Below are positions 1 to 50,810 of a DNA stretch of 50,810 bases, in pieces. The number at the start of each line of letters is the position of its first letter. Within the stretch, counting starts at the first letter, position 1. The notes under the pieces are model-generated. The model did not search any database. It was not told the DNA's origin and saw only the letters and a program-made list of their open reading frames with translations. Source of the DNA: a virus; the IMG/VR virus record IMGVR_UViG_3300045988_054624, positions 1 through 50,810 of that record, one strand, 5' to 3'. The translations under genes and the position numbers were made by a program.

Positions 1-60
1 TGTTTCTTTTATCAATTTATTTTTACCTCGTCAAATATTTTTTTTCAATTTTTTTTCACG
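1..60 (-). promoter_or_regulatory. Conserved early promoter cassette (copy identical to 47112-47168 and to the window end 50771-50810); drives gene 50444..50722 across the genome junction
   Basis: Minus strand reads ...AAAATATTTGACGAGGTAAAAATAAATTGATAAAAGAAACACG; -35-like TTGACG, 17-nt spacer, TAAAAG. A 58-nt exact repeat of the copy at 47111-47168. Confidence 0.5.
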
Positions 61-64
61 CGTG

Positions 65-106
65 AAAAAAAAGCTCCCCCTGACCGCCGTAATAGTCAGG
101 GGGAGC
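65..106 (-). terminator. Rho-independent terminator ending the leftward early operon after dut
   Basis: Hairpin GCTCCCCCTGAC-N10-GTCAGGGGGAGC (73-106) followed on the minus strand by T8 (plus 65-72 is A8); embedded in a perfect palindrome tttttttcACGCGTgaaaaaaaa. Confidence 0.6.
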
Positions 107-8158: not shown

Positions 8159-8210
8159 TTTTTTGTCTTTCTATTGTTTGGTTGATAGGTTTATAACCTC
8201 TCGTCGCTCA

Positions 8211-8243
8211 TCATATACAACTTTTTTTAGCCCCTTGTCAAAT
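8211..8243 (-). promoter_or_regulatory. Sigma70-like promoter for the lipoprotein gene
   Basis: Minus strand TTGACA-18 nt-TATATG, then a CA-rich SD-less leader before the ATG. Confidence 0.4.
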
Positions 8244-8256
8244 AATTTTTTACAGT

Positions 8257-9582
8257 TTAGGCTGTTTTCATCGAAAGTCTTTGAATTTCAAATTCTTCAA
8301 ATAGTGCATCGGTGTAATCACGCCGCATTTTCAGCGTTTCAAAGACCTGTTCTTCTACAGAATCCCGGCAAATAAGCGTGTAATAGAAACAGGCATTTTT
8401 CTGACCAATTCGGTGCGTCCGTTTTTTGCTCTGTTCAAAATACTCGCTGGACAAGGGTAGTGTGAAGTAAACAATCTTGTTCGCCTTTTGGAGATTCAAC
8501 CCCATTGATCCAGATTGATATTGACAGAAAGTAATGGAATCTTCCTTGGTCTCGTATGCCGTCAAGTCTTTGACTGAACCGTTCACTTCACTTTGCGGAC
8601 GGCCTTTAGCTATTTCCTTGAGCTTTTCAAGTTCTTCCTTGAAGTTGTAGAAAACTATCAACCTGTCTTCCGTTGAGGCTATGAGGTCGCCAAACGCTTC
8701 CAGCTTCGCCTTGTTGAACTGACCGCATAGCATACGTTCATAGAGCAGTCTAGTTAGGCTCATATCTCCTACTAGCGTTTTCCCTTCAACTTCTACAATC
8801 CTTTCTTTTTTGAACCGTCTATACGCCGGTGTAGAATCCACGTCGATTTTTACGAACGTTTGTTCTGGTAATGATAGCACATCTTCAGTTTTAAGAAAAT
8901 ATGCGCCATTTTTTCGTAACATCATTTTCAGTTCATCAACATTTTGATATCCCACGACGATTTTAATCGGGAATCTCGAATTTTTTATTTTGAGTTCGTG
9001 TTCAATTATGTAGCGATTGTAAAACTCACGCTTGGATATGTTCCATCCTAACAATTTGCATTGGCTCCAAAGACGCTCGTATTTTCCCGCAGTTGGTGTG
9101 CCAGATAGAAGAATCACGTTCTTTTCATTCAATCGGTTCAAGATGAACCTAGAACGCTTTGAGTTCTCATTCTGGATAAGTGACGATTCATCCAACAGTA
9201 AAGTAATTCTTTCCAGTTGCCTTAATTCGGGCCGTCTCCAAACCAAATCATAATTGATGACGATAACACCGTGAGCCGGTTTTGCGTTCGGCTTTGTGTA
9301 ATCAATCACATTCAATTCCGGATAGTATTGTTTGAAATGAGCGATCCAGTCATTGACTTTTGACTTCTGGCATATCACTAGATTGTATTCTTCACCTAGC
9401 CGAACCAGTTTTTCAGAACCAATGAAGGTCTTACCCAAACCCATATCATACCAGTAAGCAACTCGGTTTTGAGAATCACTTTTCGATAATACTTCTATTT
9501 GATGCGGATAAAGATTCACTTTGAGAACACCTCCTTCCAGAACGATTGTTTCATAGTTAGAACGGATTGATGATGAACTCAA
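8257..9582 (-). CDS. SNF2-family helicase (early region)
   Basis: GLGKTF Walker A; DESS box (LLLDESSLIQN); SGTP; C-terminal helicase motif MGLNLQKANKIVYF...RTHRIGQ. Confidence 0.75.
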   Translation of the reverse strand: MSSSSIRSNYETIVLEGGVLKVNLYPHQIEVLSKSDSQNRVAYWYDMGLGKTFIGSEKLVRLGEEYNLVICQKSKVNDWIAHFKQYYPELNVIDYTKPNAKPAHGVIVINYDLVWRRPELRQLERITLLLDESSLIQNENSKRSRFILNRLNEKNVILLSGTPTAGKYERLWSQCKLLGWNISKREFYNRYIIEHELKIKNSRFPIKIVVGYQNVDELKMMLRKNGAYFLKTEDVLSLPEQTFVKIDVDSTPAYRRFKKERIVEVEGKTLVGDMSLTRLLYERMLCGQFNKAKLEAFGDLIASTEDRLIVFYNFKEELEKLKEIAKGRPQSEVNGSVKDLTAYETKEDSITFCQYQSGSMGLNLQKANKIVYFTLPLSSEYFEQSKKRTHRIGQKNACFYYTLICRDSVEEQVFETLKMRRDYTDALFEEFEIQRLSMKTA

Positions 9583-10347: not shown

Positions 10348-10467
10348 AAGATACTTTTACCGGGTAAGTATCTAAAAAATATGTTATCAGCCTCTTTCGC
10401 AATAATCAAGACTAAATTACGTATTTTTTAGATACTTTCTAACTTTTTATGATATAATCAAGATACT
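10348..10467. promoter_or_regulatory. Lysogeny switch: four AAGATACTT operator half-sites/palindromes and divergent promoters
   Basis: AAGATACTT at 10348 and its reverse complement at 10365 form a palindrome; further copies at 10430 and 10460; extended -10 TGATATAAT at 10450-10458 reading toward the repressor. Confidence 0.55.
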
Positions 10468-10874: not shown

Positions 10875-10898
10875 TGATTGTTAAACAGTTATGGAATA

Positions 10899-11104
10899 GT
10901 GTCACAGATGTAACAGATGTTTCCTATATATTTATTATTTTTCTCAATATGAAATAAGATGGGAATAGTTTTTTTTCACTTTTCATGTGAAAATGTAGGG
11001 GAATTGGAAGTGTTACATCTGTTACACTGTTACATCAGGCATGTAAATCTTTGAAAATCAAATGTTTTAAGGTGTCACAGATGAAGAAAGGGAAGTGTTA
11101 CACA
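10899..11104. repeat. Array of TGT(A/C)ACAGATG motifs (region A) between repressor and integrase
   Basis: gtgtcacagatgtaacagatg (10899-10919), gtgttacatctgttacactgttacatc (11010-11036), ggtgtcacagatg (11071-11083), gtgttacac (11096-11104); the same motif family as at 38995-39398. Confidence 0.6.
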
Positions 11105-36356: not shown

Positions 36357-37441
36357 TTGTTCTTTCCTCCAAACACTTGAGCATACAAAGAACGGAAGGT
36401 TCGTTTTTTAGGGTCTCCACCAATCAAAGCTTGATAGACGACTTTATATGTTTTGTTATCCATGTACGAATTGTGCATCATGACAAACCGTTTATATTGT
36501 TTATAATTCATTTGTTGAGATGGCGTAGTGAATCGTTCGGGTTGATTGAATAATTCAAACACTTTTTCCTTGTAATCAGTATCATCTTTCCTTTGCTTCT
36601 TTCGACGGTAAAGCTCTGTATCAAAATACAACATTGCCATGTATGCGTTAGGTTCCCGCTTGCATATCTCGTTGAACAAGTCCGGGTAAAACTCGCACAT
36701 GTTGACGAGTGATCCTGCCGTGTCGATGCTGAAAAACTGCGATATTCGCATTCTGCCAAATCCTAAGCCGGTTCGGTACATGTGTTCATAGGCTATTGGA
36801 TATTCAAGCCCGTTGTCGGCTATGTACTTCCACACGTCCGTATCGGTCCAATCATAGATGGGATAGGCTTTAGCATGAATGGCCTGAAACACTGCAACGC
36901 CGTTCATTCTTTGAACACTCTCCGATACTCTAACGCCTATCATTTGAATCTTGTCTTTATTGACCCGCTCCATGAATGATTGATAGGTATCTTTCCTTGG
37001 TTTGAAAAGCGGGTGACTAGTGATTGCAAATGACGGCATATCTCTCACCCATACATCACGCTTGAACCTGTCCCAGCAAATGAAACTTTCATCATTTGTT
37101 AGAGCGTTAAAACAATTAAAATGTTTGCACTCAATCGCCCACCACCTGAACGGAACGCCTATGGACAACCATTGACGGCGAATATTCATCGTGACTTTTT
37201 CCACACATGGATAAATGGCTTCCTCGTCAATGAAATCCACTGTGAGAAGTGACTTGTCTATCTCTCCGCTCTGGCATAATTGAAAGACGAGATTGTTCAG
37301 GCAAATGCTATCCTTGCCACCTGAAACGCTTAATTGAACCGGTACGCCATTGGAAAAAATGTTTTTGATGCGCTGGCGTGCAGCGGTGACAACGTTAATG
37401 TCCGTGTAATGCTTTTTAATCAAGCGGTATGCACTCCCCAC
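36353..37441 (-). CDS. IbrA/YbdN-like PAPS-reductase-family PP-loop protein (copy A, divergent)
   Basis: PP-loop VSGGKDSICLNNL; 362 aa; Cys-rich central region. The same family as 39538..40671 and 41554..42840. Confidence 0.65.
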   Translation of the reverse strand: MGSAYRLIKKHYTDINVVTAARQRIKNIFSNGVPVQLSVSGGKDSICLNNLVFQLCQSGEIDKSLLTVDFIDEEAIYPCVEKVTMNIRRQWLSIGVPFRWWAIECKHFNCFNALTNDESFICWDRFKRDVWVRDMPSFAITSHPLFKPRKDTYQSFMERVNKDKIQMIGVRVSESVQRMNGVAVFQAIHAKAYPIYDWTDTDVWKYIADNGLEYPIAYEHMYRTGLGFGRMRISQFFSIDTAGSLVNMCEFYPDLFNEICKREPNAYMAMLYFDTELYRRKKQRKDDTDYKEKVFELFNQPERFTTPSQQMNYKQYKRFVMMHNSYMDNKTYKVVYQALIGGDPKKRTFRSLYAQVFGGKNK

Positions 37442-38933: not shown

Positions 38934-38991
38934 ATTATATCATAATAATAAGATACTTATGAAGAAAAAGGAGCGCAAAAAGATACTTTTT
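38934..38991 (-). promoter_or_regulatory. Repressor-operator-controlled leftward promoter
   Basis: Minus-strand extended -10 TGATATAAT (plus 38934-38942), identical to the repressor promoter -10; AAGATACTT operator copies at 38950-38958 and 38982-38990. Confidence 0.5.
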
Positions 38992-38994
38992 AAG

Positions 38995-39398
38995 GTGTAA
39001 CAGATGTAACAGATTAGGGTGGAATCATCTGTTACAGTAGATAAGGAAATAAAAATGAATGGGTTATAGTAAGAAAACGGTTGTGAAGTGTAACAGATGA
39101 GAAAATCATCTGTTACACCCTTAAAGCGTTAAATATTAGCGGATTGCGAAGAGGTGTAACGCATGTAACAGATAAAATGTATATATTTTCTTATTATATA
39201 TACATATATAAAAATATATAGAAATAATATTTTACTATATATAAATTATTTACATTAACTCTATAAAATATATAAGTAAGAAAGAAATAAGTGTTACATG
39301 TGTGACAGCATGAGATAACACTATGGTTTTTAATAAGTTAAAGGTGTAACAGATTGAAAAAACAATCTGTTACACATCTGTTACATCTGTTACACCTG
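38995..39398. repeat. Iteron/palindrome hub (region B): TGTAACAGAT(G) arrays flanking a TA-rich tract
   Basis: gtgtaacagatgtaacagat (38995) with an inverted partner atcatctgttacag (39023); perfect palindrome GTGTAACAGATGA-gaaaa-TCATCTGTTACAC (39088-39118); ggtgtaacgcatgtaacagat (39153); a 115-nt TA-rich tract (39175-39290); gtgttacatgtgtgacag (39291); GGTGTAACAGATTG-aaaaaa-CAATCTGTTACAC plus two more CATCTGTTACA copies (39343-39398). Confidence 0.7.
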
Positions 39399-39537: not shown

Positions 39538-40671
39538 TTAGGCCCATTCTAGGCATGAAATATCAACCTTGCCTTGAGAGAACCCCAAACCCTTGCATGC
39601 GAAGTCATTTGTCAAAATGCACTTGCACACTCTTCTCCAAGACGGAACATCCCGTTTTTTCTCCATGAAATAATCTGCCTCGTCCGGTATTCCATCAGGA
39701 TAACCTTGACGTTTCCACTTGGAAACAAACTCGGTGATCTTCCTCCGGTAATTATCCCGTGCTTGTGGAAAACTCGTTTCGACGAGAAAGACGGCATATT
39801 GCTCCCATGTGAAATGACTAGGTTTCGTCAGGTTCTTAAACGCAACCGCTGAAGTTCCTCCGTAAATCCTGCCAAAGTTCACGCCATTGACGCGATTGAG
39901 CAACTTGCTCCACGTTTGAGGTTCAATTACCCTGTACAGTTTCAGATTGTTCAAGCCGCACGTGTGAAACGGATTCGCAACACGCATTTGATTGATTGTT
40001 AGTCCAGCCTTGTAAAACAAGTCATAAATGCAGTTGTAGTCCCATGCCATTTTCGCATTTGCCACCCACACATCAGACGTTTTCCAATCGTAGATAGGAT
40101 AAACCTTGTGAGCCTGTTTATCCTTGCCTACAATCCAGTCCACCATTCTAATTAACTTTTGACGCTCAAGGCTCTCTTCGGCTCGAATGCCAATCATGAC
40201 GGCGGTTTTCCCGTATTGACCGGCAAACCAGTCGCAAAAGTCATCCTGAACGGAATAATCTTGTTTTCCAACTTCAACGGCGAATGGACAATTATCCTCA
40301 TGTATCACATAAGGAAGTTTTGGTATCGTTCTGCACCACAGGGCCTTGTCTGGCTTGTGCCACGGAATCCAAACGGAATTGTCCATCTTGCAACCGCAAT
40401 TTGCACCAACCGGAAGACAAAGCCAGAAGCGGCGAATGTCGTTGAACCGTTCAAATGTTCGTGTAACGTAATCCGTTGTGTAACTGTATTGCGCTTCATA
40501 GTCCATATGGTACATTGCCAGTTTGTGAAGGAATCCATTTTCCTTCGCAAAATCATAGCAAAGATTAAGTAAAACACCGCTATCTTTTCCACCTGAAAAG
40601 CTTACAAGTACAGAATCGTATTCATTAAAAATCAAAGAAAGTCTGTTTAAGGCGGCTTGGTAAACGTTCAT
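39538..40671 (-). CDS. IbrA/YbdN-like PAPS-reductase-family PP-loop protein (copy B)
   Basis: PP-loop VSFSGGKDSGVLLNL; LAMYHMDYEAQY..TTDYVT; WLCLPVGANCGCKM...WIPW; close paralog of 41554..42840. Confidence 0.7.
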   Translation of the reverse strand: MNVYQAALNRLSLIFNEYDSVLVSFSGGKDSGVLLNLCYDFAKENGFLHKLAMYHMDYEAQYSYTTDYVTRTFERFNDIRRFWLCLPVGANCGCKMDNSVWIPWHKPDKALWCRTIPKLPYVIHEDNCPFAVEVGKQDYSVQDDFCDWFAGQYGKTAVMIGIRAEESLERQKLIRMVDWIVGKDKQAHKVYPIYDWKTSDVWVANAKMAWDYNCIYDLFYKAGLTINQMRVANPFHTCGLNNLKLYRVIEPQTWSKLLNRVNGVNFGRIYGGTSAVAFKNLTKPSHFTWEQYAVFLVETSFPQARDNYRRKITEFVSKWKRQGYPDGIPDEADYFMEKKRDVPSWRRVCKCILTNDFACKGLGFSQGKVDISCLEWA

Positions 40672-41023
40672 CTTCCCATTCTTCTATAATTTGTTGAGCA
40701 ATAGCATTAGCGGTGTTACGTTCGTCATCGGATAGCAGCCACCATGCTTCCCGGGTCTCGTCTTCTTTCACTCCGGCATAAAGGCAACACGCAGCTTGCC
40801 CCAGCCATGCCTTACGATTGACATTGACATTTGAAAAAACTTGTTCTGTTGATATTTTCCATCGTTTTTTAACTTCACGCATCCATCGTTGGCAAATGTC
40901 CGGTGAGGATAAGAGAGAGCGGGCCAGTTCTACACGGCCAGCCCGCCCCTCGTTTAATTCATCATACATTCCGCATTTGTAATCCTCCCATTCTTCGTAA
41001 TGATGAAATACTTGTTTAATCAT
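40625..41023 (-). CDS. Hypothetical protein inside the IbrAB-like array
   Basis: 132-aa ORF between IbrB-like copy 3 and IbrA-like copy B. Confidence 0.3.
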   Translation of the reverse strand: MIKQVFHHYEEWEDYKCGMYDELNEGRAGRVELARSLLSSPDICQRWMREVKKRWKISTEQVFSNVNVNRKAWLGQAACCLYAGVKEDETREAWWLLSDDERNTANAIAQQIIEEWEDERLPSRLKQTFFDF

Positions 41024-41534
41024 TTTCAGTTTCCCACGCTTGAGAAAATTCCTTGTCTTTGAACAATGAAGCTAATCCGGTTATTTGTTTCAGCCGCAAC
41101 AACTCTTCCGCATCCATGCCGATATTTTTCAGAATCCACGCATCCGACATGCCAGCCTCCACCAGTTCACCTACGATGTTGCTCATGAGTTCGATGGAAT
41201 GAGAACCACGGGCGCGGTTGTGCCGGATCGTCGAGGCCATTCGGTTTGAAATGTCCTTATCAATGACCACCACGGGCAGCTTACCGCCTTCACGGTCATA
41301 AATGTCCTGATGTGTCTTCATAATGGTGTAACGGTGGAAGCCGTCAACAATCTCATACTTGCCATTCTCCAGCTTGTAGCAGACAATCGGCATCGTATAG
41401 CCGTCTTCCAAAATGGACTTGTAGAGCAGCTTCATTTCCGGAGGTGCAACGCTGTTAGGGTTGTATGAGTTCGCCTGAATGTCTTCCAGAGGTACGGCGA
41501 TTACGTTATATACGGGGCTTGTAATGGTATTCAT
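41016..41534 (-). CDS. IbrB/YbdM-like ParB-like nuclease-domain protein (copy 3)
   Basis: SYNPNSV...LLYKSILEDGYTMPIV...IVDGFHRYT...KLPVVVID...IRHNRARGSH. Confidence 0.65.
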   Translation of the reverse strand: MNTITSPVYNVIAVPLEDIQANSYNPNSVAPPEMKLLYKSILEDGYTMPIVCYKLENGKYEIVDGFHRYTIMKTHQDIYDREGGKLPVVVIDKDISNRMASTIRHNRARGSHSIELMSNIVGELVEAGMSDAWILKNIGMDAEELLRLKQITGLASLFKDKEFSQAWETEND

Positions 41535-41553
41535 ATTCGTGTTGTGTTGTAGG

Positions 41554-42840
41554 TTAGAGGTTTTTGTATTTTTCGAGTGCTTTTTTTCGTTTAACTAATG
41601 CTTCTTTCGTAAATCCGAATCCTGCATATTTGCAGTAGTAATCATTTTTCAAGATACAAATGCACATGCGCTTGTATGAAATAACCGTTGAAAAACAATC
41701 AACGTCCATATCATCCGGAACATCCGAGAACGCAACAATTGAGCGGTCGTCATACTTTTCAGATGGCTTGATATATTGAGCATGATTTGACGCATTCAAA
41801 ACGTCCTGTAAATCTTTTGTCGGGAGAGTGCCACCCTTGCTCCAATACTCTATTGACCGCCGCATGACATCTTGATAATGCTCCGCAACATCTTTGTTGA
41901 GAGTAGTTAAAAGAAACTCATAGTATGATTTCCACGTGTGACCTTTCGGTAACGTGATTGACTTCCAGCCCATTGCCGTAGTGCCTCCGTAAAGTCCGGT
42001 GAAATTGGCTCCATTGACACGGCTGACGAGTTTCCCCCATGTGTTAGGCTCAATAATTTTATAGAGTTTCAACGATGCAGTAGCGCAATCGTTGAACGGG
42101 CTTGCTACCCGCATTTGATCCGGCGTTAATCCAGCTTGATAATACAGGTCATAGAGTTTGTTGTACTCAAATCCAAACTTGGCATTGGCAATCCAAACAT
42201 CATCTACCATCCAATCATAAATCGGATAGCATTTCAACGGGCTTCTGTCTCCTACGATGTAATGAGTTCCCTTGTATTTATTGACTTTACGTTGTCCGGC
42301 AATGGCTGAATAACGATGCAAGCTTTCATCCGCACGAATGCCAATCATGACACCAGTTGAACCATATTCCCGGTTGAACCATTTGCAGAATCTGTCTTGA
42401 ACTTGATAATCCGTTTCGCCTTCGTTCATGGTAAACGGGCAATTATCTTCATTCACCACATATTCAAACGCTGGCATTTCCCTGCACCAGATGCCACGGT
42501 CTTCTTTTTTCCAAGGTATCCACAAGCCGGAGTTCATATTACAGGCGCATTGAGCACCCACAGGCAGGCATAGCCAAAATCGCTTGATGTCATCAAAGCG
42601 GGCAAATGTGTTTGTCACATAGTCCGTTGTCATCTGATATTGTGCCTCATAATCAATGTGGTACATGGCTAGCTTATCAAGCAATCCATGTTCCTTTGCG
42701 TATTTGTAGCACAAGTTCAACATGACCGAGCTATCTTTACCGCCGCTGAACGCAACCAGCACGTTTTCAAACTCGCTGAAACAGAACGCGATACGTTCCA
42801 TTGCGGCATCATAGACGTTTTTTTCTATGTAGTTCTTCAT
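41554..42840 (-). CDS. IbrA/YbdN-like PAPS-reductase-family PP-loop protein (copy C)
   Basis: PP-loop VAFSGGKDSSVMLNL; WLCLPVGAQCACNM...WIPW; 428 aa. Confidence 0.7.
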   Translation of the reverse strand: MKNYIEKNVYDAAMERIAFCFSEFENVLVAFSGGKDSSVMLNLCYKYAKEHGLLDKLAMYHIDYEAQYQMTTDYVTNTFARFDDIKRFWLCLPVGAQCACNMNSGLWIPWKKEDRGIWCREMPAFEYVVNEDNCPFTMNEGETDYQVQDRFCKWFNREYGSTGVMIGIRADESLHRYSAIAGQRKVNKYKGTHYIVGDRSPLKCYPIYDWMVDDVWIANAKFGFEYNKLYDLYYQAGLTPDQMRVASPFNDCATASLKLYKIIEPNTWGKLVSRVNGANFTGLYGGTTAMGWKSITLPKGHTWKSYYEFLLTTLNKDVAEHYQDVMRRSIEYWSKGGTLPTKDLQDVLNASNHAQYIKPSEKYDDRSIVAFSDVPDDMDVDCFSTVISYKRMCICILKNDYYCKYAGFGFTKEALVKRKKALEKYKNL

Positions 42841-44006
42841 AAGTCTTTTATGGTTAAGTTTCCTTGCTTTTTGAAGTGATTGACGAGGGATTCTTTCTTA
42901 GAAATACATTCATCTATCATTCTTTCAAGTCCTACGTCTCCTGTTAGGTCAAAGTATTCACAATCAAGCGTTTGACCGTTTCGGTAGATACGCCCTTCTG
43001 ATTGTTCCCGGAATGAGTAGTCAAATGTTTTGTCAAAGTAAATGATGCGGTTATATCGTTGAAGATTAAGGCCAAAGGAACCTTTTCCGTACGTCAGAAC
43101 AACTGCATCCGGGTATCTCCGTTGAACTTCATTCCGGCTATCAATGTACTTGCAGAACACGATTGATTTATCCGTCAGAAGTTCATCTAGGATTTCCCAT
43201 TTTTCGGACGAAAGGCAATAGGAATGTTGAAGTTTTGAAAAGATAGCCAGTAAGTTTTCTTCTTCGTTACGGTTAATGTATTCATAGAATAGACAAGCTT
43301 TAAGGTTCCTGTATGCTTCATTTTCTTCCCAAGTCATATTCCAATAGCGGACGTGATACTTCTTTTCAACTTTCAATTCCAGATTGCATTGAAACACATA
43401 GGGTTTCACAAGTGAAAGAAGGTGATCGACATTCGCATATCCGGTGATAATCGTTTTGGTAACTCGTCCACCTCTTTTGTGTTGTGTGTAAGTGCAATAG
43501 CGGTCCCGGAATCGGTAAAAAGTGTAAGGCAGGATTTTAGGGGAAAGGAATTGCATTTGAGCGTAAATATCACAAATGTTTTTCGTCACCGGCGTACCGT
43601 TCAGAATGAGCTTGTATTCCGCGAATCGTCCTAGGTGCACGATGCGTTGCGTGCGCTTGGCTCTCATGTTTTTGATTTTAATTGATTCATCCGCAACCAT
43701 GAAAACCCGTTTGAATTGTTTGACGTACTCTAATTCTTCAAGGTAGATACGGTCACTACATCCGATTGATTCGATGCCCATGATGTGAGCCTTGTACTTG
43801 CATCCGCATTTTTCAAGCTCGGTTTCAAGAGTTTCCTTGACTTGGCACGGACAAAGCCAGTAGAGGCAATCCACATCCGGCACGGAGTTAATCAGGGCAA
43901 CCGCCGTTTGAGTTTTACCGGTGCCGCAAGCCATGAAGAGTGCGCCAACCTTGAGGCGTTGCAACTTTTCAATGGCTTGCTGCTGGTTGATGGTTAAATC
44001 TCGCAT
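42837..44006 (-). CDS. SNF2/DEAD-like SF2 helicase (second copy)
   Basis: Walker A ACGTGKTQT; DESI box (MVADESIKIKN); LNGTPV; C-terminal FGLNLQRYNRIIYF...GRIYRNGQ, parallel to the helicase at 8257..9582. Confidence 0.6.
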   Translation of the reverse strand: MRDLTINQQQAIEKLQRLKVGALFMACGTGKTQTAVALINSVPDVDCLYWLCPCQVKETLETELEKCGCKYKAHIMGIESIGCSDRIYLEELEYVKQFKRVFMVADESIKIKNMRAKRTQRIVHLGRFAEYKLILNGTPVTKNICDIYAQMQFLSPKILPYTFYRFRDRYCTYTQHKRGGRVTKTIITGYANVDHLLSLVKPYVFQCNLELKVEKKYHVRYWNMTWEENEAYRNLKACLFYEYINRNEEENLLAIFSKLQHSYCLSSEKWEILDELLTDKSIVFCKYIDSRNEVQRRYPDAVVLTYGKGSFGLNLQRYNRIIYFDKTFDYSFREQSEGRIYRNGQTLDCEYFDLTGDVGLERMIDECISKKESLVNHFKKQGNLTIKDL

Positions 44007-44008
44007 GA

Positions 44009-44416
44009 TTAGCGGGTCAATGAGGGGTCAGCGTCAATTTCAACCGGATCAAGTGGAGAGGGTTTATGATAGATGATTTCCTCTTTTTCCGGGGCCGCAT
44101 GGGGCGTATATGGGGCCTTTTCAACGTATCCGCCAAACGCTTCCGCGAGTTCATCAGCGGTTATTTCCTTGCTAGCGATAACTTCAAATTTGTTGAACTT
44201 CCCCTTCCCGTTTTTGATAAGCTTGAACGTCATATCCTCGTTGACGGATAAAAAACGTTCGTAGCTATGGCGGCCTTGCCTGACCAGTTTTTGACTTATC
44301 CAGAACTTATAGCCATCATGAGCGGATGAATGAGGCATGCCAATAAGCACACCGTTCATTGTTTCATGTTGTATATTTTGTACGTTGAATGCGATTTTTT
44401 TCCAAGTAGCGTTCAT
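44009..44416 (-). CDS. Hypothetical early protein
   Basis: 135-aa ORF; stop-start overlap with the helicase gene. Confidence 0.35.
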   Translation of the reverse strand: MNATWKKIAFNVQNIQHETMNGVLIGMPHSSAHDGYKFWISQKLVRQGRHSYERFLSVNEDMTFKLIKNGKGKFNKFEVIASKEITADELAEAFGGYVEKAPYTPHAAPEKEEIIYHKPSPLDPVEIDADPSLTR

Positions 44417-44492
44417 TGTTTTTTTTCGGTTGACATTGCCGGAATTGCCCGTCCGGCGCGGGGTAATTTTTTCCGTTATTCGGTTGGTTGTT

Positions 44493-44750
44493 TTAGTCCC
44501 AATCTAAAACTAAATCGTACTCTTCCGCTTTTTCGAGGATGTCTCTTACATCGACAAAATCTTTTACTTCTTCAGGAACATTGCCACCAACCAATCCATG
44601 TCTTACGCCGTGGACTTCCCGCACCGGGCAATAAAAATTATAGTTTTTTCCTTCCTCGTCATAATTTTTTACCGGTTCTCCGGTAATAGCGATTTCATGG
44701 CGATGAAAGGTGAATATTTCTCGTACTTTGTAAGTTTTATCAGCGTTCAT
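44493..44750 (-). CDS. Hypothetical early protein (own promoter cassette)
   Basis: 85 aa; preceded by the cassette at 44778-44865 and by the leader ...ACAAGACAAC-ATG. Confidence 0.4.
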   Translation of the reverse strand: MNADKTYKVREIFTFHRHEIAITGEPVKNYDEEGKNYNFYCPVREVHGVRHGLVGGNVPEEVKDFVDVRDILEKAEEYDLVLDWD

Positions 44751-44777
44751 GTTGTCTTGTTTCGGTTGGTTGTTTAT

Positions 44778-44865
44778 GAGGGCCTATCCCCTCTTGACGT
44801 TATCTTTTTAGCAATTTTTTTTCACAACGTCAAACTATTTTTTTATTTTTTTCACGAGGTTCCCA
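44778..44865 (-). promoter_or_regulatory. Early promoter cassette with 5' hairpin
   Basis: Minus strand TAGTTTGACGTTGTGAAAAAAAATTGCTAAAAAGATAACGTCAAGAGGGGATAGGCCCTC, then a CA-rich leader. Confidence 0.45.
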
Positions 44866-45195
44866 TTTATTATGATGGTGACTGTTGCAGTCAGAGCAAG
44901 GATGTTCATCTACTAAACAATCCCAAAACTTGCAATTAGCGCACATTCGGTGGTGATTAGGAATATTCCACGCCCGGCACTCGGCCCGCTTCTGCCAAGC
45001 GTCACGGATAAGCAGGGCGTGCTGTTCAGTAACATCTTGGGTCTCGCAGCAAACATAGTTTCCGCTTCTCCAATAGTGACGCTTAGAGAGGAAATTAACA
45101 CACTTCCATCCTTTATGGTCGTCTCTAAATTTTTCCAATTTCCCAAGAGCTTTCCCGTACTCAAAAAAGGCTTTCTGTTCAGGCGTCAGTTTCAT
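44830..45195 (-). CDS. Cys/His-rich putative zinc-binding protein
   Basis: CANCKFWDCLVDEHPCSDCNSHHH plus extra Cys/His residues; 121 aa. Confidence 0.4.
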   Translation of the reverse strand: MKLTPEQKAFFEYGKALGKLEKFRDDHKGWKCVNFLSKRHYWRSGNYVCCETQDVTEQHALLIRDAWQKRAECRAWNIPNHHRMCANCKFWDCLVDEHPCSDCNSHHHNKWEPREKNKKIV

Positions 45196-45201
45196 GGTCG
45201 T

Positions 45202-45384
45202 TTAGTCTTCGGATAAATCTTCTTCGCGGATGGAGCCGTAAGTGTACCCGTTGTCAAAGCTCAAATACACCTTCGCATCATCATCGTATTGTTCCAAAAG
45301 TTCAATCATATCACGGACGGTCATTGTTCGTCCGCACTGTTCAGGAGAGTATCCGTTATTTGTTGCATTGATAATTACTTTCAT
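45202..45384 (-). CDS. Small hypothetical protein (own promoter cassette)
   Basis: 60 aa; ATG preceded by ...CATCGAACAACA; cassette at 45425-45490. Confidence 0.35.
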   Translation of the reverse strand: MKVIINATNNGYSPEQCGRTMTVRDMIELLEQYDDDAKVYLSFDNGYTYGSIREEDLSED

Positions 45385-45424
45385 TGTTGTTCGATGGGTT
45401 GTTTAGTTCGTTCCTTTCGGTTAC

Positions 45425-45525
45425 GTGTACCTTTTACTAATTTTTTGATACATTGTCAAATATTTTTTTCAATTTTTTTTTCAAGCTGTAAAAAGTTCTA
45501 CCGAGTTATGCTCATAACTCGGTAG
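45425..45525 (-). promoter_or_regulatory. Terminator (45498-45525) immediately followed by an early promoter cassette (45425-45490)
   Basis: Hairpin CTACCGAGTTATG-agc-ATAACTCGGTAG, then AACTTTTT; then AAAATATTTGACAATGTATCAAAAAATTAGTAAAAG. Confidence 0.5.
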
Positions 45526-45533
45526 AAAATCAA

Positions 45534-45869
45534 TTACCTTTGCAGAACCTTGCACCGTTTCAATATCTCCTTCGGAACCAGAAAGATAACTTCATCGTCT
45601 ATGCCATCTTTATAGGAAACGACTACTGGAACAAAATTCATGCAATCGAACAAATTACAAGTTACTTCATCGTCCGACATGCAAGCTACTGTTTGAGCAG
45701 GTAGGGAATCCATCAAAAGCTTCCTAGCTTCCCGCAGTTGTCCAACATACAGAGAGATGTCATATTGGCATCCTTGTACAAGCCCATTATCCGTATCTTC
45801 TAACAATTCGTTTATATCCATAGTCTTATTTCTGTTCGAGTTCCCACGGCCATTCAGAAACATCTTCAT
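45534..45869 (-). CDS. Hypothetical protein
   Basis: 111-aa ORF followed by an intrinsic terminator. Confidence 0.35.
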   Translation of the reverse strand: MKMFLNGRGNSNRNKTMDINELLEDTDNGLVQGCQYDISLYVGQLREARKLLMDSLPAQTVACMSDDEVTCNLFDCMNFVPVVVSYKDGIDDEVIFLVPKEILKRCKVLQR

Positions 45870-46182
45870 ATTTGAATTGTTCTAATTCATTTGTTTTAAG
45901 ACAAATACCGAAAAACGTTGATTCATTTCTATAAATCTCTGTTACTCGGAAATAATGATAGCCCGAATTACTTTCGTTTACTACTAGTTCATCCCCTATT
46001 TGCAACCGCATGATTGGCGGGAACTTGGAGACAAGCTCATTCCAAGCCTCTGCGGCTTCTTGGGGCGTGAATTGCCGCAGGGCACACAAGCCACATTGAG
46101 TACAAATATATTGGTATCCTTGAGGTATTATATCGAGGAATGTTCTTTTACTCCCGCAGATAGGACATTTAAGCTTTTTCAT
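45826..46182 (-). CDS. Zinc-ribbon protein
   Basis: CPICGSKRTF...CTQCGLC; probable start MKKLKCPICG (the track start at 46299 overlaps the upstream gene). Confidence 0.4.
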   Translation of the reverse strand: MKKLKCPICGSKRTFLDIIPQGYQYICTQCGLCALRQFTPQEAAEAWNELVSKFPPIMRLQIGDELVVNESNSGYHYFRVTEIYRNESTFFGICLKTNELEQFKYEDVSEWPWELEQK

Positions 46183-46477
46183 TGTTCCTTCCTTTCTGTT
46201 TCGCAATGAGTTCTTCAAACTTTCTATTGGCGTCATCTTCGCTCCGGTATGTCCATCCGAACACTCCCCAATCAGAAGTACTAGGAAGCCGTTCATCACC
46301 GGTCATTTGTCCGGTTAAAGCGTTATCTTTTTTCATTGTGCGGAGCACTACAACTTCAAACGCCTTGTAGTTATTTTTTTCCTGTTTGTAAACAGCAACG
46401 TTCCCTTCTCTCCTGATTAGTTGATGGTGAAAACCTTGCCTAGTGTATAGTTCACGTATTGCTTTCATGACATTCAA
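46169..46477 (-). CDS. Hypothetical protein
   Basis: 102-aa ORF. Confidence 0.35.
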   Translation of the reverse strand: MNVMKAIRELYTRQGFHHQLIRREGNVAVYKQEKNNYKAFEVVVLRTMKKDNALTGQMTGDERLPSTSDWGVFGWTYRSEDDANRKFEELIAKQKGRNNEKA

Positions 46478-46519
46478 TAGTTTAAGAGGGGGTGCATTAT
46501 CTACACCCCCTCTTGTTGT

Positions 46520-47059
46520 TTACGCTTCCATTTCGTTCAATTTGTCGCACACCATCTGTGTCAACAATTCTGCCTTCTTTTTTCCCAAATTCGTGAATGA
46601 GGCAGTAGCCACAGGCATATCATAGTTCCTCCTATAGACAACACCAGTTTTCACGTAGTAGGGCGGCTCGCTGACGGGTTCAACAAGTTCCAAGTCAAAC
46701 CACTTAACGCAGTTGGAATAACCGTGACCTTTTAAGTCAACCCACCCCAAATCGCGTTCATTACTACGGACCTCATATATCTTATCTTCGTTTGGCTGCT
46801 CGGCATAGTCCTCCCGTCCGCTTGGCACATACCGCACCTGATCGCCCTTGCGGAACTTCCGATTTTTCGGATACTCCGTTGCTGATTCCACTTTGGTAAG
46901 TTCTTCCGTATCACAACATTCAATACCACCATCAAAAAACTGAACTCGAATTGGATAACAATCGGAGCCGTCATCCTCAGTGATTTTTCCAACTCGTCCG
47001 TTAGATTCAATGCTATTGACTTTCACGATAGTTCCTATTTTGCATTCTTCTCTCTTCAT
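46520..47059 (-). CDS. Hypothetical early protein, paralog of 47142..47738
   Basis: Shared NRKF(R/L)KGD(Q/T)VR(Y/L)V and C-terminal LELVEP motifs; own promoter cassette. Confidence 0.45.
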   Translation of the reverse strand: MKREECKIGTIVKVNSIESNGRVGKITEDDGSDCYPIRVQFFDGGIECCDTEELTKVESATEYPKNRKFRKGDQVRYVPSGREDYAEQPNEDKIYEVRSNERDLGWVDLKGHGYSNCVKWFDLELVEPVSEPPYYVKTGVVYRRNYDMPVATASFTNLGKKKAELLTQMVCDKLNEMEA

Positions 47060-47088
47060 GTTGTTTTGTTTTCTATTGTTTAGGTTTT

Positions 47089-47170
47089 GAGGGGCGTTTC
47101 CCCTCGTGACGTGTTTCTTTTATCAATTTATTTTTACCTCGTCAAATATTTTTTTTCAATTTTTTTCGCT
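47089..47170 (-). promoter_or_regulatory. Early promoter cassette with 5' GC hairpin (GAGGGG-cgttt-CCCCTC)
   Basis: 58 nt identical to 1-58; the leader AAACCTAAACAATAGAAAACAAAACAAC-ATG lacks an SD. Confidence 0.5.
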
Positions 47171-47738
47171 CTACGATTCTCCACTTTGAAATAAGGTCTA
47201 GGTCGGTAAAGATTGAACTTTTCCATTCCAATTCACCCGTTTCATCTGGTATTTCCACCATAATCGTATCGTTATGAAAAAGTTTCACTACTTCACAATT
47301 GGTACCGTCGATTTTGCGGGCCATGACGCAATGTTCTTCCACCATGAGCCGTATCGCCTCACAGCCGGAAATGTCATAAACCATTTCTTTACGGGGTTCG
47401 ACGAGTTCCAGCAGCGAATACGAGATTAACATGTTATCGACTAGAACGCCTCCAATCTGGTTCTCGTCTTCTTCGAGCACGTAGGTTTTCCCGTATTTCA
47501 ATGTGACCGGGGCAGGTCTTCCGTGATTTACGAGCCTGACCGTATCACCTTTCAGGAACTTCCGGTTCGGTTCCTGATTGGCTGCTTCGAGGCAGTCAGG
47601 GGAAAAGTACCAATCGCACGTGCAATCACCCCCCCTGTCTGATCTAACTAGAACGGGTCTTTGGGGGTAACCACCAGTCCCTATAATCCTTCCACGGATG
47701 ATGACTTCCGTTCCGGGTTTGCAATCTTCAAGATTCAT
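47142..47738 (-). CDS. Hypothetical early protein, paralog of 46520..47059
   Basis: The start is probably the ATG at 47738 (MNLEDCKPG) after the leader CAACCTAAACAAC; the track start at 47765 is GTG. Confidence 0.45.
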   Translation of the reverse strand: MNLEDCKPGTEVIIRGRIIGTGGYPQRPVLVRSDRGGDCTCDWYFSPDCLEAANQEPNRKFLKGDTVRLVNHGRPAPVTLKYGKTYVLEEDENQIGGVLVDNMLISYSLLELVEPRKEMVYDISGCEAIRLMVEEHCVMARKIDGTNCEVVKLFHNDTIMVEIPDETGELEWKSSIFTDLDLISKWRIVERKKLKKNI

Positions 47739-47800
47739 GTTGTTTAGGTTGTTTAGGTTTATCACCCGTCACAAATCGTGACGGGTGATAGTTATTTTTG

Positions 47801-48625
47801 TTAGATTATTCTTCCGCTGAATGTTTGTTTAGTGGTAACTAATACCGAACCCCTATGAATTCGGTTGTCAGGCAGGGCCTTGCGTAGTTTTTCATCAATA
47901 TCCTTAATTGCGTTACGTTCCGGAATATCCGGTCTAATCATTTGATAGACAAAGAACAAATGACCGTCATTCAAGCGCACACGTAACCGCACCTTGATTT
48001 CATAGGTGGTATCTTCTTCCGCACCCTGAATGACTGGAATTGCTATAGTAAACTCCGTAGGAACGTTTAATTCTCCGCTCTTGGATTCCTGCGTTTCGTT
48101 GTAGGTCAGCTTGGTTTCCCCGTCGCTGGCACGATAGGCAGATTTGAACTCAACCTTGCGGTGCATATCAAACTTGCTCGCCAACGTAAGCATTTCAGAT
48201 GCGGACGGTTTGACAATATCCTTGCTATTCTCTTCGAGGAACTCAACAAACTCTCTTTGAGACAGGCGGGAACCGTTCAACTCATTCCAGTTATTCCATT
48301 CAACCGTTTTTTGGAGTGCCATTTTCGCATAATGGTCCATCCATCCGGATTCTTCCGCCCCGGAATAATAATTGAACACTGCATGAACACATGAATTGCT
48401 CACGTAAATAACGCTCTTGACTTTGTTTTCATCGTCTTCCGCTTTGACGTGTTCAATCAACGTATCCAAGTCGAGTAGTTGAATACCGCATGCCTTTCGG
48501 TCCGGGTACTCATTCAAGTTCCTAAGATGGTGCAATTCATAACCTTCCGGCACGATTGCGGCGGTTCCGTTTCCTACTTCCTGCACACGCAGTGCAGCTA
48601 ATGTTTCTTCGTTTAGACTATCCAT
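47801..48625 (-). CDS. Hypothetical early protein (274 aa)
   Basis: ORF with an SD-less CA-rich leader; no motif recognised with confidence. Confidence 0.4.
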   Translation of the reverse strand: MDSLNEETLAALRVQEVGNGTAAIVPEGYELHHLRNLNEYPDRKACGIQLLDLDTLIEHVKAEDDENKVKSVIYVSNSCVHAVFNYYSGAEESGWMDHYAKMALQKTVEWNNWNELNGSRLSQREFVEFLEENSKDIVKPSASEMLTLASKFDMHRKVEFKSAYRASDGETKLTYNETQESKSGELNVPTEFTIAIPVIQGAEEDTTYEIKVRLRVRLNDGHLFFVYQMIRPDIPERNAIKDIDEKLRKALPDNRIHRGSVLVTTKQTFSGRII

Positions 48626-48629
48626 AATA

Positions 48630-49058
48630 TTAGGCTTGTTTTACTTTAGCGGGAGTGCTTTCAACAGATTCACTTTGGAAATCAACTACTTTCGGTTTGA
48701 TAACCTTCTTAGGTGCATCCAAATCAAGCATGCCTTGATTCGGGTCATCCGTGTGCAGGTTGCCGTCAGCATCGGCAAACATGATGCGCGCGGAAATCGT
48801 TGGGTCAGGAATGTTTGCGCTGACCTTCGGTTCAATGACTACTTGATTCATGCCACCTTTACGCTTCACACTAAGCTTCAATGTCAGATTGCCATTGTTG
48901 CCGGTTGCTAGGACGGATGCCACAAGGTCAGTCATCTTCTTATCAAGGGCATTAAGTAATGCGCCTTCGTTAATCTCGGAAAGGTTGTCAAAGAACACCT
49001 CTCCGGGTAGTTGTCGTGTAGTTTTTTCGCTCATGGTTTTGTTAGATGTTGTCCTCAT
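48630..49058 (-). CDS. Hypothetical early protein (142 aa)
   Basis: ORF; no motif recognised. Confidence 0.35.
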   Translation of the reverse strand: MRTTSNKTMSEKTTRQLPGEVFFDNLSEINEGALLNALDKKMTDLVASVLATGNNGNLTLKLSVKRKGGMNQVVIEPKVSANIPDPTISARIMFADADGNLHTDDPNQGMLDLDAPKKVIKPKVVDFQSESVESTPAKVKQA

Positions 49059-49240
49059 ACCGTGAGGGGCGGGACGGTTTTTCTAAGCCGTCAAAAGCTT
49101 CTGGATAATCCGGACAGAACCCGGAATGTGGAGATTTACCTTGCAGCAGTTCTTCATTGTCATCATTCACTACGTAAATGATTGACAGGGGAATTGATGC
49201 GTAAAACGCAAGGCCAGCTAGTATTTTCAGAATAATCATG
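49042..49240 (-). CDS. Small single-pass membrane protein
   Basis: Probable start MIILKILAGLAFYASIPLSIIYVV after the leader ACAACAAAACAACCAAC; the promoter cassette lies inside the longer track ORF. Confidence 0.3.
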
Positions 49241-49256
49241 TTGGTTGTTTTGTTGT

Positions 49257-49332
49257 GGGAGGGCGTTCCCTCCCGTTGACAAGTTCCTTTTAACAATTTA
49301 TTTTCACTTAGTCAAATATTTTTTTTTTAGAT
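49257..49332 (-). promoter_or_regulatory. Early promoter cassette with 5' hairpin GGGAGGG-cgtt-CCCTCCC
   Basis: Minus strand TATTTGACTAAGTGAAAATAAATTGTTAAAAGGAACTTGTCAACG plus the hairpin. Confidence 0.45.
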
Positions 49333-49496
49333 TATTCATCATAGTGCCCGTCTGGATTGTCACAGGTGGCATGGTCCGCGTCATGTTGGCTGATTGCTTC
49401 CTCCAACTCAGCTATCATCCCCCAAGCCTCTACCGGCGTTACAACTTCCCCATTCACCCGGATGCAGCGGTCTTCTTCGTCGTATTCAATAATCAT
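49332..49496 (-). CDS. Small acidic protein
   Basis: Probable start MIIEYDEEDR; 54 aa. Confidence 0.25.
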   Translation of the reverse strand: MIIEYDEEDRCIRVNGEVVTPVEAWGMIAELEEAISQHDADHATCDNPDGHYDE

Positions 49497-49497
49497 G

Positions 49498-50421
49498 TTA
49501 GTTCTCCTTGGTGAAATGTTCGCTGACAAACCTTTCCGTGTACCAGTTAATATATGCTTGCCAAGCCTTGAGGCGCGGAGACCACCTGAACCCGTTTCGT
49601 TTCAGCAGGGAACGTACTTCTTCATCAGGCTTGTCCGGGAAGAAAAGCCGGATGCGGTTTTCGCTAGGCACCTTTTCAACTCGGATTCCTGATTCCGTTT
49701 CCGTTTCTTCCGGGGCGGTCTCTTTCGCAATCTTGACTTTGCGGAGGCGGCCTTCAAGCCTCCGGATTTCCGCATTGTTGTTGGAAAGCTCAAAAGATGG
49801 GAACCCGATGCGTCCGCAAAAATCCGGAGTGAGGATGTCCCTTGCATCTCTTTCGCTAAATCCCATTTCCAGCAATCCGGCATGCGCCTTTTCCTTGTCG
49901 CCTTTCGCCTTGCGAATAATGGCGTTGGCAGCTTTCATCGTCTCCTGCAATTTCCGGCATGATGCAATCTTGGCTTCCAGTCGTTCAACGGCGTTCGTAT
50001 CACTGGATTTAATGGGAGCATTCGGGTCATTGTAGTACCTCCGCTTGATGGACTTTTCAGCGCGTTCGATGAAGGACATGATTTCGTCTGCTTTATTGTC
50101 AGCCCAACGTGAACGTTTCTCCATGCGTGCAACCGGGAAGTTTGCCGGACCAGCAATGAATGAGGAAACGCACCGGGAATGTGAGTGGCAGTAAGCGAGG
50201 TATTTTTCCCGGAGAGCGGAGCGGAAGCGTTCAAACTCTTCTTCAATTTTGTCTTCATGTTCGCCCTTCATGTTGTATTCCAAGACGGAGCGGAAGGACA
50301 TGAGGGTTTGAACGTAGTCGCGCCTAAGACTTTCCCCACGACGTTCAGGGAAAAAGCTTGTTCCGTTGAAGGCTTGTTCGGCTGTGTTCTGCGGTATATC
50401 GTCAATGTAGTTTGTATTCAT
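49498..50421 (-). CDS. Hypothetical early protein (307 aa)
   Basis: ORF; Cys/His motifs and a C-terminal RNGFRWSPRLKAWQAY; function unknown. Confidence 0.4.
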   Translation of the reverse strand: MNTNYIDDIPQNTAEQAFNGTSFFPERRGESLRRDYVQTLMSFRSVLEYNMKGEHEDKIEEEFERFRSALREKYLAYCHSHSRCVSSFIAGPANFPVARMEKRSRWADNKADEIMSFIERAEKSIKRRYYNDPNAPIKSSDTNAVERLEAKIASCRKLQETMKAANAIIRKAKGDKEKAHAGLLEMGFSERDARDILTPDFCGRIGFPSFELSNNNAEIRRLEGRLRKVKIAKETAPEETETESGIRVEKVPSENRIRLFFPDKPDEEVRSLLKRNGFRWSPRLKAWQAYINWYTERFVSEHFTKEN

Positions 50422-50443
50422 GGTCTTTTTTCTGTTGTGGTTT

Positions 50444-50722
50444 TCAGAATTTAAAGCAGAAGTCGATGACTTGTTCGGTTCCCGGTTTCCGGGTATAAAC
50501 GATGAATCCGCAACGGCTCGCGTCCTTGTCTATCACAACGTCATTTCCGTCCGGCCCTCTCATGATTTCAATTCCCGCTTCTTCCAGCTTGTTGAAATGG
50601 AATAAAAGTTCATCCGCTTCATCATCCGGAAGTTCAAGAACGTCTTCCTGTGAAAGTTTCATTTCAGCACGGGCAATGATGCGGAGGCTTTCCATGTTGT
50701 CTTCGATTTTTTTAGTCTTCAT
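50444..50722 (-). CDS. Hypothetical early protein
   Basis: Probable start MKTKKIEDN after the leader CAACCACCAACCGAACCAACCACA; the track start (TTG at 50785) lies inside the promoter cassette. Confidence 0.35.
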   Translation of the reverse strand: MKTKKIEDNMESLRIIARAEMKLSQEDVLELPDDEADELLFHFNKLEEAGIEIMRGPDGNDVVIDKDASRCGFIVYTRKPGTEQVIDFCFKF

Positions 50723-50740
50723 TGTGGTTGGTTCGGTTGG

Positions 50741-50810
50741 TGGTTGTGAGGTGCCTTTCCCCTCGTGACGTGTTTCTTTTATCAATTTATTTTTACCTCG
50801 TCAAATATTT
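50741..50810 (-). promoter_or_regulatory. Early promoter cassette copy spanning the genome junction (continues at 1-60)
   Basis: Hairpin GAGGTGCCTTTCCCCTC; 50771-50810 is identical to 1-40. Confidence 0.45.

Follow-up and report, generated by a model that had tools for sequence, protein, structure and literature searches.

The stretch of DNA analysed here, hereafter the window, is the viral record IMGVR_UViG_3300045988_054624 of IMG/VR, 50,810 nucleotides (nt) in length. It carries a reiterated element of about 60 nt, referred to below as the cassette, which stands ahead of genes of an accessory block and has the architecture of a promoter. Almost all genes of the window lie on the minus strand. 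The first 40 bases (1-40) are an exact repeat of 50771-50810, and an independent metagenome contig, L042 (50,779 bp; 99.99% identical), crosses the junction, reading from the dUTPase gene through a promoter into the next gene. The window is a complete circular genome of ~50,770 bp. Since the ends overlap and L042 reads through the junction, the cassette pieces at 1-60 and 50741-50810 are a single copy (W1). This copy, four further ones (W2 to W5) and a variant (W6) are built as follows.

1..62, minus strand: W1, upstream part; upstream promoter (UP)-like A-tract GTGAAAAAAAATTGAAAAAAAATAT at ~59-35; 1-40 is the assembly overlap
50723..50810, minus strand: W1, downstream part; -35 TTGACG at 50804-50799; -10 TAAAAG at 50781-50776; degenerate hairpin at 50764-50748, CA-rich leader, ATG of gene 50722-50444
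49240..49340, minus strand: W2; A-tract; -35 TTGACT at 49315-49310; TGt and -10 TAAAAG at 49292-49287; hairpin GGGAGGGAACGCCCTCCC at 49274-49257, leader ACAACAAAACAACCAAC, ATG at 49239
47060..47172, minus strand: W3; A-tract; -35 TTGACG at 47145-47140; TGa and -10 TAAAAG at 47122-47117; hairpin GAGGGGAAACGCCCCTC at 47105-47089, CA-rich leader, ATG at 47059
45385..45486, minus strand: W4; A-tract; -35 TTGACA at 45459-45454; -10 TAAAAG at 45436-45431; no stable hairpin; CA-rich leader, ATG at 45384
44751..44860, minus strand: W5; A-tract; -35 TTGACG at 44833-44828; TGc and -10 TAAAAA at 44810-44805; hairpin GAGGGGATAGGCCCTC at 44793-44778, CA-rich leader, ATG at 44750
8159..8268, minus strand: variant W6; -35 TTGACA at 8241-8236; 18-bp spacer; TATATG at 8217-8212; AU-rich hairpin at ~8202-8184, CA/A-rich leader, ATG at 8158

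Cassette matches were defined by the 30-nt degenerate pattern TTTGACNNNGTNNNAAWAAATTNNTAAAAR, with the chance level taken from 100 shuffles. With 0 mismatches, the pattern was found on the minus strand at 6-35 (= 50776-50805), 49287-49316, 47117-47146, 45431-45460 and 44805-44834. These are five distinct sites (six if the 40-nt assembly overlap is counted), compared to 0.01 expected by chance. An earlier note on this DNA had described a reiterated cassette in six copies including the one at the junction, and on these numbers the repeat is real. Up to three mismatches, no further site was found in the window, and none lies inside a gene or on the other strand. A generic scan (A/T-rich upstream region, TTGAC, 17 bp, TAnnn) also recovers W1-W5 in the early block of the window. 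All five are intergenic and oriented into the next open reading frame (ORF), and W1 and W4 lie directly downstream of hairpin-plus-T-run terminators. The relative TTGACA-18-TATATG, said to precede a lipoprotein gene, is present as well (W6, 8241-8212); the product of gene 8158-7607 begins MNKPVTITCSLIVLAIGGC and is lipobox-like.

W1-W5 share a common build of an A-tract, a -35 element TTGAC, a 17-bp spacer, a -10 element (TGn)TAAAAG and a start region cACGTCA. Columns fixed in five of five copies are the A-tract by the -35, TTGAC, a GT three bases further on and an A-run plus TT in the spacer, followed on the side of the -10 by TAAAA and then AC.GT.A. The -35 hexamers of W1 to W6 (TTGACG, TTGACT, TTGACG, TTGACA, TTGACG and TTGACA) are near the sigma70 hexamer TTGACA, and the spacing between hexamers is 17 bp in W1-W5 and 18 bp in W6, within the range of 17 ± 1 bp. 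All -10 boxes have T at position 1 and A at position 2; position 6 is G (W1-W4, W6) or A (W5). The extended -10 TG is found in W1, W2, W3 and W5, with TTAG instead in W4. A C-G (pyrimidine-purine) step is located 7 nt after the -10 in W1, W3, W4 and W5. UP-like A-tracts (e.g. GAAAAAAAATTGAAAAAAAATAT) precede each of the five copies and are retained in relatives. Two other promoter classes were considered and rejected. For a Bacteroides-type promoter (TTTG ... TAnnTTTG), the distance from TTTG to TAAATTG is 12 nt, not ~19-21 nt, and for an extracytoplasmic function (ECF)-type promoter the gap between AAC and CGTC is too small, at 2 nt.

The sigma70-type geometry, the position and the orientation of the cassettes agree with their earlier assignment as promoters, and it is from these features that we infer promoter activity. 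W1-W6 are probably reiterated promoters that are read by the host RNA polymerase with its primary sigma70/sigmaA-type factor and that punctuate the accessory block. The host polymerase would recognise the UP-like A-tract (~-38 to -60), the -35 TTGAC, the 17-bp A-rich spacer and the weak -10 TAAAAG, which the extended -10 TG would reinforce in most copies. The conserved cACGTCA would supply the pyrimidine-purine step 7 nt after the -10. In most copies the predicted transcript would open with a short GC stem-loop ~6 nt from its 5' end, which may slow 5'-end-dependent decay. An unstructured, G-poor and CA-rich leader of 20-30 nt with A at position -3 would then permit initiation independent of a Shine-Dalgarno (SD) sequence. 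Along the genome, such promoters would restart transcription after the terminator of the replication operon and then recur through the accessory block.

The early promoters of T4, T5 and SPO1 and the A1-A3 promoters of T7 are reiterated and read by the host RNA polymerase. The cassettes resemble them in that a host-type promoter is present in many copies, and in the extended consensus, UP-like tracts, the TG-extended -10 and the single orientation before small accessory or early genes. The phage of the window differs from them in carrying a recombinase and a switch of the lysogeny type, in having no more than five or six copies and in a -10 of TAAAAG, not TATAAT. Family searches found no phage RNA polymerase or sigma factor among the proteins scanned.

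The same phage and variants of it (~92-98% nucleotide identity) occur in several human-associated metagenomes (L042-L044, L057, L058, L081-L086), and a more distant relative (L045/L100) shares ~80% nucleotide identity in the replication module. The strain variants (L057, L081-L086) retain TTGAC and TTGnTAAAAG along with hairpin and start region, and it is the spacers that diverge, as in the orthologous pair TTGACAacgtactaataagttgaTAAAAG and TTGACGaggtaaaaataaattgaTAAAAG. L045 has five promoters of the same build (four found by the scan, one read by eye) with the -10 boxes TATATT and TAAATT (canonical T end and A/T-rich core), TAATTT, TAACTT and TAAAAG. Promoter spacing is 17 or 18 bp in the strain variants and L045, and 16 or 18 bp in L059. 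The cassettes are thus conserved in close relatives, and the pattern of conservation is promoter-like. Because boxes, start region and pairing are kept while spacers and stems are free, these appear to be promoters combined with an RNA structure, not a protein site that spans the whole 60 nt.

In W1, W2, W3, W5 and relatives, the -35 TTGAC and GTCAA of the start region form a short inverted repeat ~37 bp apart, of marginal significance. A complement of at least 5 nt is present in 7 of 13 distinct copies and is perfect over 8 nt in W5 (TTGACGTT/AACGTCAA). ACGTCA of the start region is kept across copies and even in an Akkermansia-type prophage promoter. Both observations would suit an additional phage or host regulator, for instance a dimer bound to TTGAC(-35)...GTCAA(+1), that switches all cassettes together. 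We consider such a regulator improbable. The complement is short, individually non-significant in most copies and absent from 6 of 13, the half-sites are ~37 bp apart, and the -35 together with the pyrimidine-purine start region accounts for both halves without a further factor. An additional bound factor, proposed earlier on account of the conservation beyond the hexamers, is not needed, since spacers diverge freely between orthologous promoters and operator-like motifs are absent from the cassettes.

Outside this group of phages, the element was searched for in several collections. No such promoter was found at 41 IMG/VR loci with a DUF2303 protein (~71% identity; median G + C content 53%), and 80 IMG/VR primase relatives (46-64% identity; ~1.3 Mb) yielded one generic site (TTGAC with a 17-nt spacer, gene strand). 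Scans of IMG/VR with the cassette pattern and a looser pattern gave no match. In JGI metagenomes the looser pattern matched 11 times, each time singly; the surrounding sequence was AT-rich and unrelated and lacked the cassette build, and these matches were dismissed as chance. No counterpart of 40000-50810 was returned by megablast from 50,697 phage records, tblastn matches to the 307-aa early protein did not exceed 45% identity, and a scan of genome contigs with an alignment of the early protein found nothing. Judged by these searches, the cassette appears to be lineage-restricted.

With the circle closed, W1 and W3 share an exact run of 70 nt and an 84-nt block of 96% identity; the remaining pairs are 57-70% identical over 82 nt. 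Two copies had been reported as identical over 58 nt. The near-identity holds, and its exact length is 70 nt once the circle is closed. Gene 50722-50444 is absent from L057, L081 and L086, which are otherwise collinear and in which another promoter of the same class (TTGACA-17-TAAAAG, no hairpin) directly drives the 307-aa gene. As the gene is missing and an older promoter is present in these variants, W1 seems to have arrived with gene 50722 as a copy of the W3 promoter. The near-identity is best explained by a recent duplication event of this kind and is no sign of a further bound factor, and the earlier suggestion of recent gene conversion appears essentially right for this pair. In L081, the W5 gene and its leader are relocated behind a W2-type promoter and hairpin, and several further small genes are replaced between the block and the variants. 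Genes have been gained, lost or moved exactly at cassette elements. Being repeated, the promoters probably also act as homologous joints for the insertion, loss and movement of cassettes between related phages.

In public assemblies, automatic calls let gene 50785-50444 start at a TTG (50785) that falls within the promoter and hairpin, for a product of 113 residues. A start at the ATG at 50722 (92 residues, behind the CA-rich leader) is more plausible.

Non-functional recombination scars, or a small mobile repeat with a chance resemblance to a promoter, would also produce rearrangements exactly at the repeats and a nearly identical pair such as W1/W3. Neither would account for the strict orientation and distance to the downstream ATG, the lack of copies inside genes or on the other strand, or a conservation specific to the -35, TGnTAAAAG and start region with free spacers, as seen in the variants and L045. 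We therefore regard this explanation as very improbable.

When predicted 5' ends were folded and compared to shuffled sequences, stable hairpins were obtained for W2 (49274-49257; -14.9 kcal/mol, z -4.2), W3 (47105-47089; -11.5 kcal/mol, z -3.5) and W5 (44793-44778; -9.4 kcal/mol, z -1.8). The hairpin of W1 is degenerate (-5.6 kcal/mol, z 0) and W4 has none (z 0). The statement that most copies carry a hairpin is thus correct for three of five copies and does not extend to W1 and W4. The hairpins begin at about +6 from the predicted start. Their stems vary (GAGGGG, GGGAGGG, AGGTT, GCCG, a 14-bp stem) yet keep the same distance from the -10 in copies and relatives, and the loops vary as well (AAACG, AACG, GATAGG, 3-nt loops). 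Relatives have hairpins at the same position with other stems (GCCG/CGGC, GGG/CCC, a 14-bp stem). Stem sequences that change between copies and relatives with pairing kept support the view that the cassette hairpin behaves as an RNA structure.

The leader of ompA in E. coli is a 5'-terminal stem-loop that stabilises the mRNA. The cassettes are similar to it in having a predicted stable hairpin near the predicted 5' end, followed by an unstructured initiation region. They differ in that two of five copies have a degenerate hairpin or none and that similar hairpins also occur between cistrons. Two such modules without a promoter are present in the window, and further ones were observed in L045.

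47759..47791, minus strand: promoter-less hairpin and CA-rich leader before gene 47738-47142; no sense-strand U-tract
46485..46513, minus strand: promoter-less hairpin AGAGGGGGTG...CACCCCCTCT and leader before gene 46468-46169

A search of Rfam gave no family at the gathering threshold and one weak small RNA match (E = 0.04) over a promoter-less hairpin. Cassette hairpins were rejected as rho-independent terminators, as an A/C-rich sequence and no U-tract follows them. They were also rejected as lambda-type nut sites, as stem and loop differ in sequence and size and no boxA-like motif is shared; no search was aimed at an N-like protein.

The promoter-less modules are what would be expected if the hairpins were signals for processing, of the RNase III type found at T7 early intergenic sites, or for antitermination in the manner of nut or put, and were not 5' stabilisers. 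The position just downstream of each promoter also recalls nut sites. Such a role is nevertheless doubtful. Loops and stems differ in sequence and size between copies, no conserved boxA/boxB-like sequence is found, the stems, at 5-7 bp, would be short substrates for RNase III, a single downstream terminator would have to be overridden, and Rfam gave no family match. A stabilising role near the 5' end is the reading we prefer.

Two intrinsic terminators lie beside the cassettes.

66..105, minus strand: canonical intrinsic terminator at the end of the replication/dUTPase operon, shortly before W1; stem 105-74, T-run 73-66
45496..45527, minus strand: intrinsic terminator; 14-bp stem, then CTTTTT; immediately upstream of W4

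The second (45527-45496) is the sole clear sense-strand terminator inside the block. Five promoters cover ~20 co-directional genes in runs of 3, 4, 4, 2 and ~7. Since they serve multi-gene runs, these are not one-gene cassettes, and the claim that each small early gene is an independent cassette was overstated. Family searches, combined for the block with the leader analysis, gave the following layout of the genome.

10488-10871, plus strand: CI-like repressor gene
10321-10109, minus strand: Cro-like DUF739 gene
11104-12126, plus strand: tyrosine recombinase gene
9.9-0.2 kb: replication module (helicase, exonuclease/Sak4-like, DNA polymerase, D5-type primase, dUTPase)
39538..50722, minus strand: co-directional accessory block of ~20 SD-less genes under W1-W5
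38.9-12.7 kb: myovirus-type virion module

The block encodes a DUF3560-like protein of 307 aa, YfdP/YfdQ-like proteins, a Lar-like zinc ribbon, an SNF2 helicase, PAPS-reductase-like proteins, ParB_N and many small ORFs. The zinc ribbon, with a sub-threshold score, is the sole functional hint towards the host-takeover or anti-defence roles proposed earlier for the small genes.

Morons of lambdoid and temperate phages consist of a promoter, a gene and a terminator inserted between conserved neighbours. Like morons, W1 and gene 50722 are absent from otherwise collinear strains, the W5 gene is relocated in L081 and W6 precedes a lipoprotein-like gene, which is typical moron cargo. Unlike morons, most units here are without a terminator of their own and form a continuous co-directional block. 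The cassettes may thus be constitutive, unrepressed promoters that express accessory genes in the prophage or plasmid state, instead of serving an early lytic programme. In favour of this, a tyrosine recombinase and a CI-like/Cro-like switch (10.1-10.9 kb) are encoded, and the replication operon that the switch drives ends at a terminator ahead of the cassettes, which contain none of the operator-like motifs of the switch. On the other hand, a terminator ends just one of five units, the helicase, ParB-like and PAPS-reductase-like genes of the block belong to types usual for early or middle lytic functions, and no integrated form of the phage was seen. We consider expression of the moron type possible, though unlikely. 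It concerns timing only and is compatible with the cassettes being promoters.

The leaders between hairpin and ATG contain almost no G, and all five cassettes have a CA-rich one with A at position -3 and no SD. Over the 20 block leaders, mean G content is 13%. A GGAG/GAGG core is found in 1 of 20 genes of the block 50722-39538, compared to 18 of 30 structural genes (Fisher p = 7e-5). The median energy of the anti-SD duplex is 0.1 kcal/mol in the block and -7.6 kcal/mol in the structural genes (Mann-Whitney p = 1e-6), and A at position -3 is present in 18 of 20 block leaders versus 13 of 30 late genes. The contrast in SD usage between early and late genes that had been proposed is borne out by both measures. 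The leader sequences quoted with it are present; one of them, AAACCTAAACAAC-ATG at 47738, sits behind a promoter-less hairpin and not behind a cassette. Of the block genes, 19 of 20 are without an SD core. Strong SD sequences (GAAAGGAGG) were also observed in a few genes that overlap or abut the preceding gene (L047 15731 and 18065; L051 16523 and 17480; L045 13831; window 46182), which suggests that the SD in these otherwise SD-less phages is used for translational coupling only.

CA-rich or CAA-repeat sequences enhance translation in the omega leader of tobacco mosaic virus and as CA multimers in E. coli. The leaders ACAACAAAACAACCAAC and AACCTAAACAACCTAAACAAC resemble them, with the difference that leader composition here may simply avoid secondary structure. 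The earlier idea of a special S1-dependent enhancer is probably incorrect. More likely, the CA-rich SD-less leaders are normal initiation regions of an SD-scarce host, because Akkermansia is reported as SD-scarce, Akkermansia-type prophages are SD-less in nearly all genes and A is found at -3 in most block leaders. Akkermansia has been listed among the 'SD-scarce' organisms that still keep CCUCC (PMC10783764), and A at -3 has been described as a Kozak-like determinant of SD-independent initiation in Bacteroidia (PMC6847099). In the Akkermansia-type prophages that share early genes with the window, SD sequences are missing from nearly all genes, structural ones included, and leaders are A/C-rich. 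The block leaders agree with the initiation regions described for such bacteria (PMC6847099, PMC10783764) in being SD-less, A/C-rich, G-poor and unstructured with A at -3. They differ from that pattern in that 18 of 30 structural genes of the same genome have strong SD cores and in that the host is itself deduced.

The host is, somewhat more likely than not, Akkermansia. Proteins of the early block are 70-75% identical to those of higher-GC phages and prophages, some of them on contigs of 257-425 kb, one of which is labelled Akkermansia sp. A segment of 229 nt (44967-45195, inside gene 45195-44830) is 98% identical to L047 17081-17309, an Akkermansia-type prophage on a 257-kb contig, indicating recent exchange. 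Promoters of A. muciniphila mapped by Cappable-seq have -35/-10 elements and a pyrimidine-purine start (PMC4782308). The genome appears to be a mosaic of modules, with an Akkermansia-type early block and replication and virion modules like those of Clostridia prophages.

Several points weigh against host-read promoters in an Akkermansia phage. The -10 ends with G or A in every copy of the window. T at this last position is among the most conserved sigma70 contacts. For this reason a consensus promoter scan did not flag the cassettes; overall it found 18 promoter-like sites in comparison to 18.6 expected, which is no excess. The hairpin seems dispensable, because it is degenerate in W1 and absent from W4 and from the junction promoter of L057/L086. 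The G + C content of the genome is 42%, compared to ~55% for Akkermansia, and at 45-68% identity the proteins of the replication and virion modules are like those of Clostridia prophages. The nearest match in a named genome (primase, 81%, L059) is a metagenome-assembled genome labelled Candidatus Enterousia, with Clostridia at ~55%, and no integrated copy of the phage was seen in the collections searched. If the host were an SD-dependent Firmicute, the explanation of the leaders would need revising.

SD use tracks module ancestry within the genome. The collagen-like tail-fibre gene at 29117 has a CA-rich SD-less leader among neighbours with strong SDs, and this exception is kept in two diverged relatives, L100 (10001) and L098 (10001; 52% G + C). 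As the SD-less leaders match the probable SD-scarce host, the SD-rich structural genes would be the real anomaly. Strong SD sequences would normally be ignored by the ribosomes of an SD-scarce host such as Akkermansia. With an SD-scarce host the SD-rich virion genes are the oddity, and with a Firmicute the SD-less early genes are; we regard this as the most interesting thread of the analysis. A rather speculative reading is that of two deliberate translation 'dialects', with SD-less accessory, early and tail-fibre genes fitting an SD-scarce host (e.g. Akkermansia) and most structural genes with strong SDs. If true, it would imply a programmed translational switch (e.g. anti-SD accessibility that changes during infection) or, alternatively, a recent cross-phylum chimera of an Akkermansia-type early module and a Firmicute-type virion module. 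The split within one genome could be used to ask whether SD-scarce bacteria outside the Bacteroidia can use SD sequences.

Current understanding is not overturned; host-type promoters in repeated copies, 5' hairpins and morons are each familiar. As a means of expressing and rearranging accessory genes, the cassettes are genuine but not very unusual for a phage. They illustrate repeated promoters as joints for the swapping of accessory genes between related gut phages. Provided that the promoters are active, they would offer a compact expression module (UP-like tract, -35, extended -10, 5' hairpin and SD-less leader) for use in a gut lineage (probably Akkermansia) that is hard to manipulate and has few genetic parts available.

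Two operator-like motifs were found elsewhere in the genome, and neither occurs in the cassettes. AAGTATCT is present three times in the intergenic region of the CI-like/Cro-like switch (10348-10466) and twice more upstream of gene 38889 (38950-38988), beside a TGATATAAT box, an arrangement that points to a single repressor for the switch and for entry into the late region. GTAACAGAT, often as GTGTAACAGATG and in both orientations, is confined to two clusters (10845-11100 and 38995-39390) with 13 copies in all. The first cluster lies around the start of the recombinase gene; the second flanks a very AT-rich stretch (~39170-39300) at the boundary between early block and late genes. These copies could be arm-type sites of the recombinase, origin iterons or operators.

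The tyrosine recombinase has homologues of 50-96% identity in more than 100 clusters, nearly all of them on contigs of 40-58 kb. A further contig that carries one measures 101,668 bp, close to two genome lengths, and no close homologue was found on a long bacterial contig. The family may persist as a free or plasmid-like circle and not in integrated form. Four PAPS-reductase/DUF3440-like paralogues (4302-5237, 36353-37423, 39538-40671 and 41554-42840) were observed, together with two ParB_N-domain genes and two SNF2-type helicases. This set is unusually large and may have a role in DNA modification or partition.

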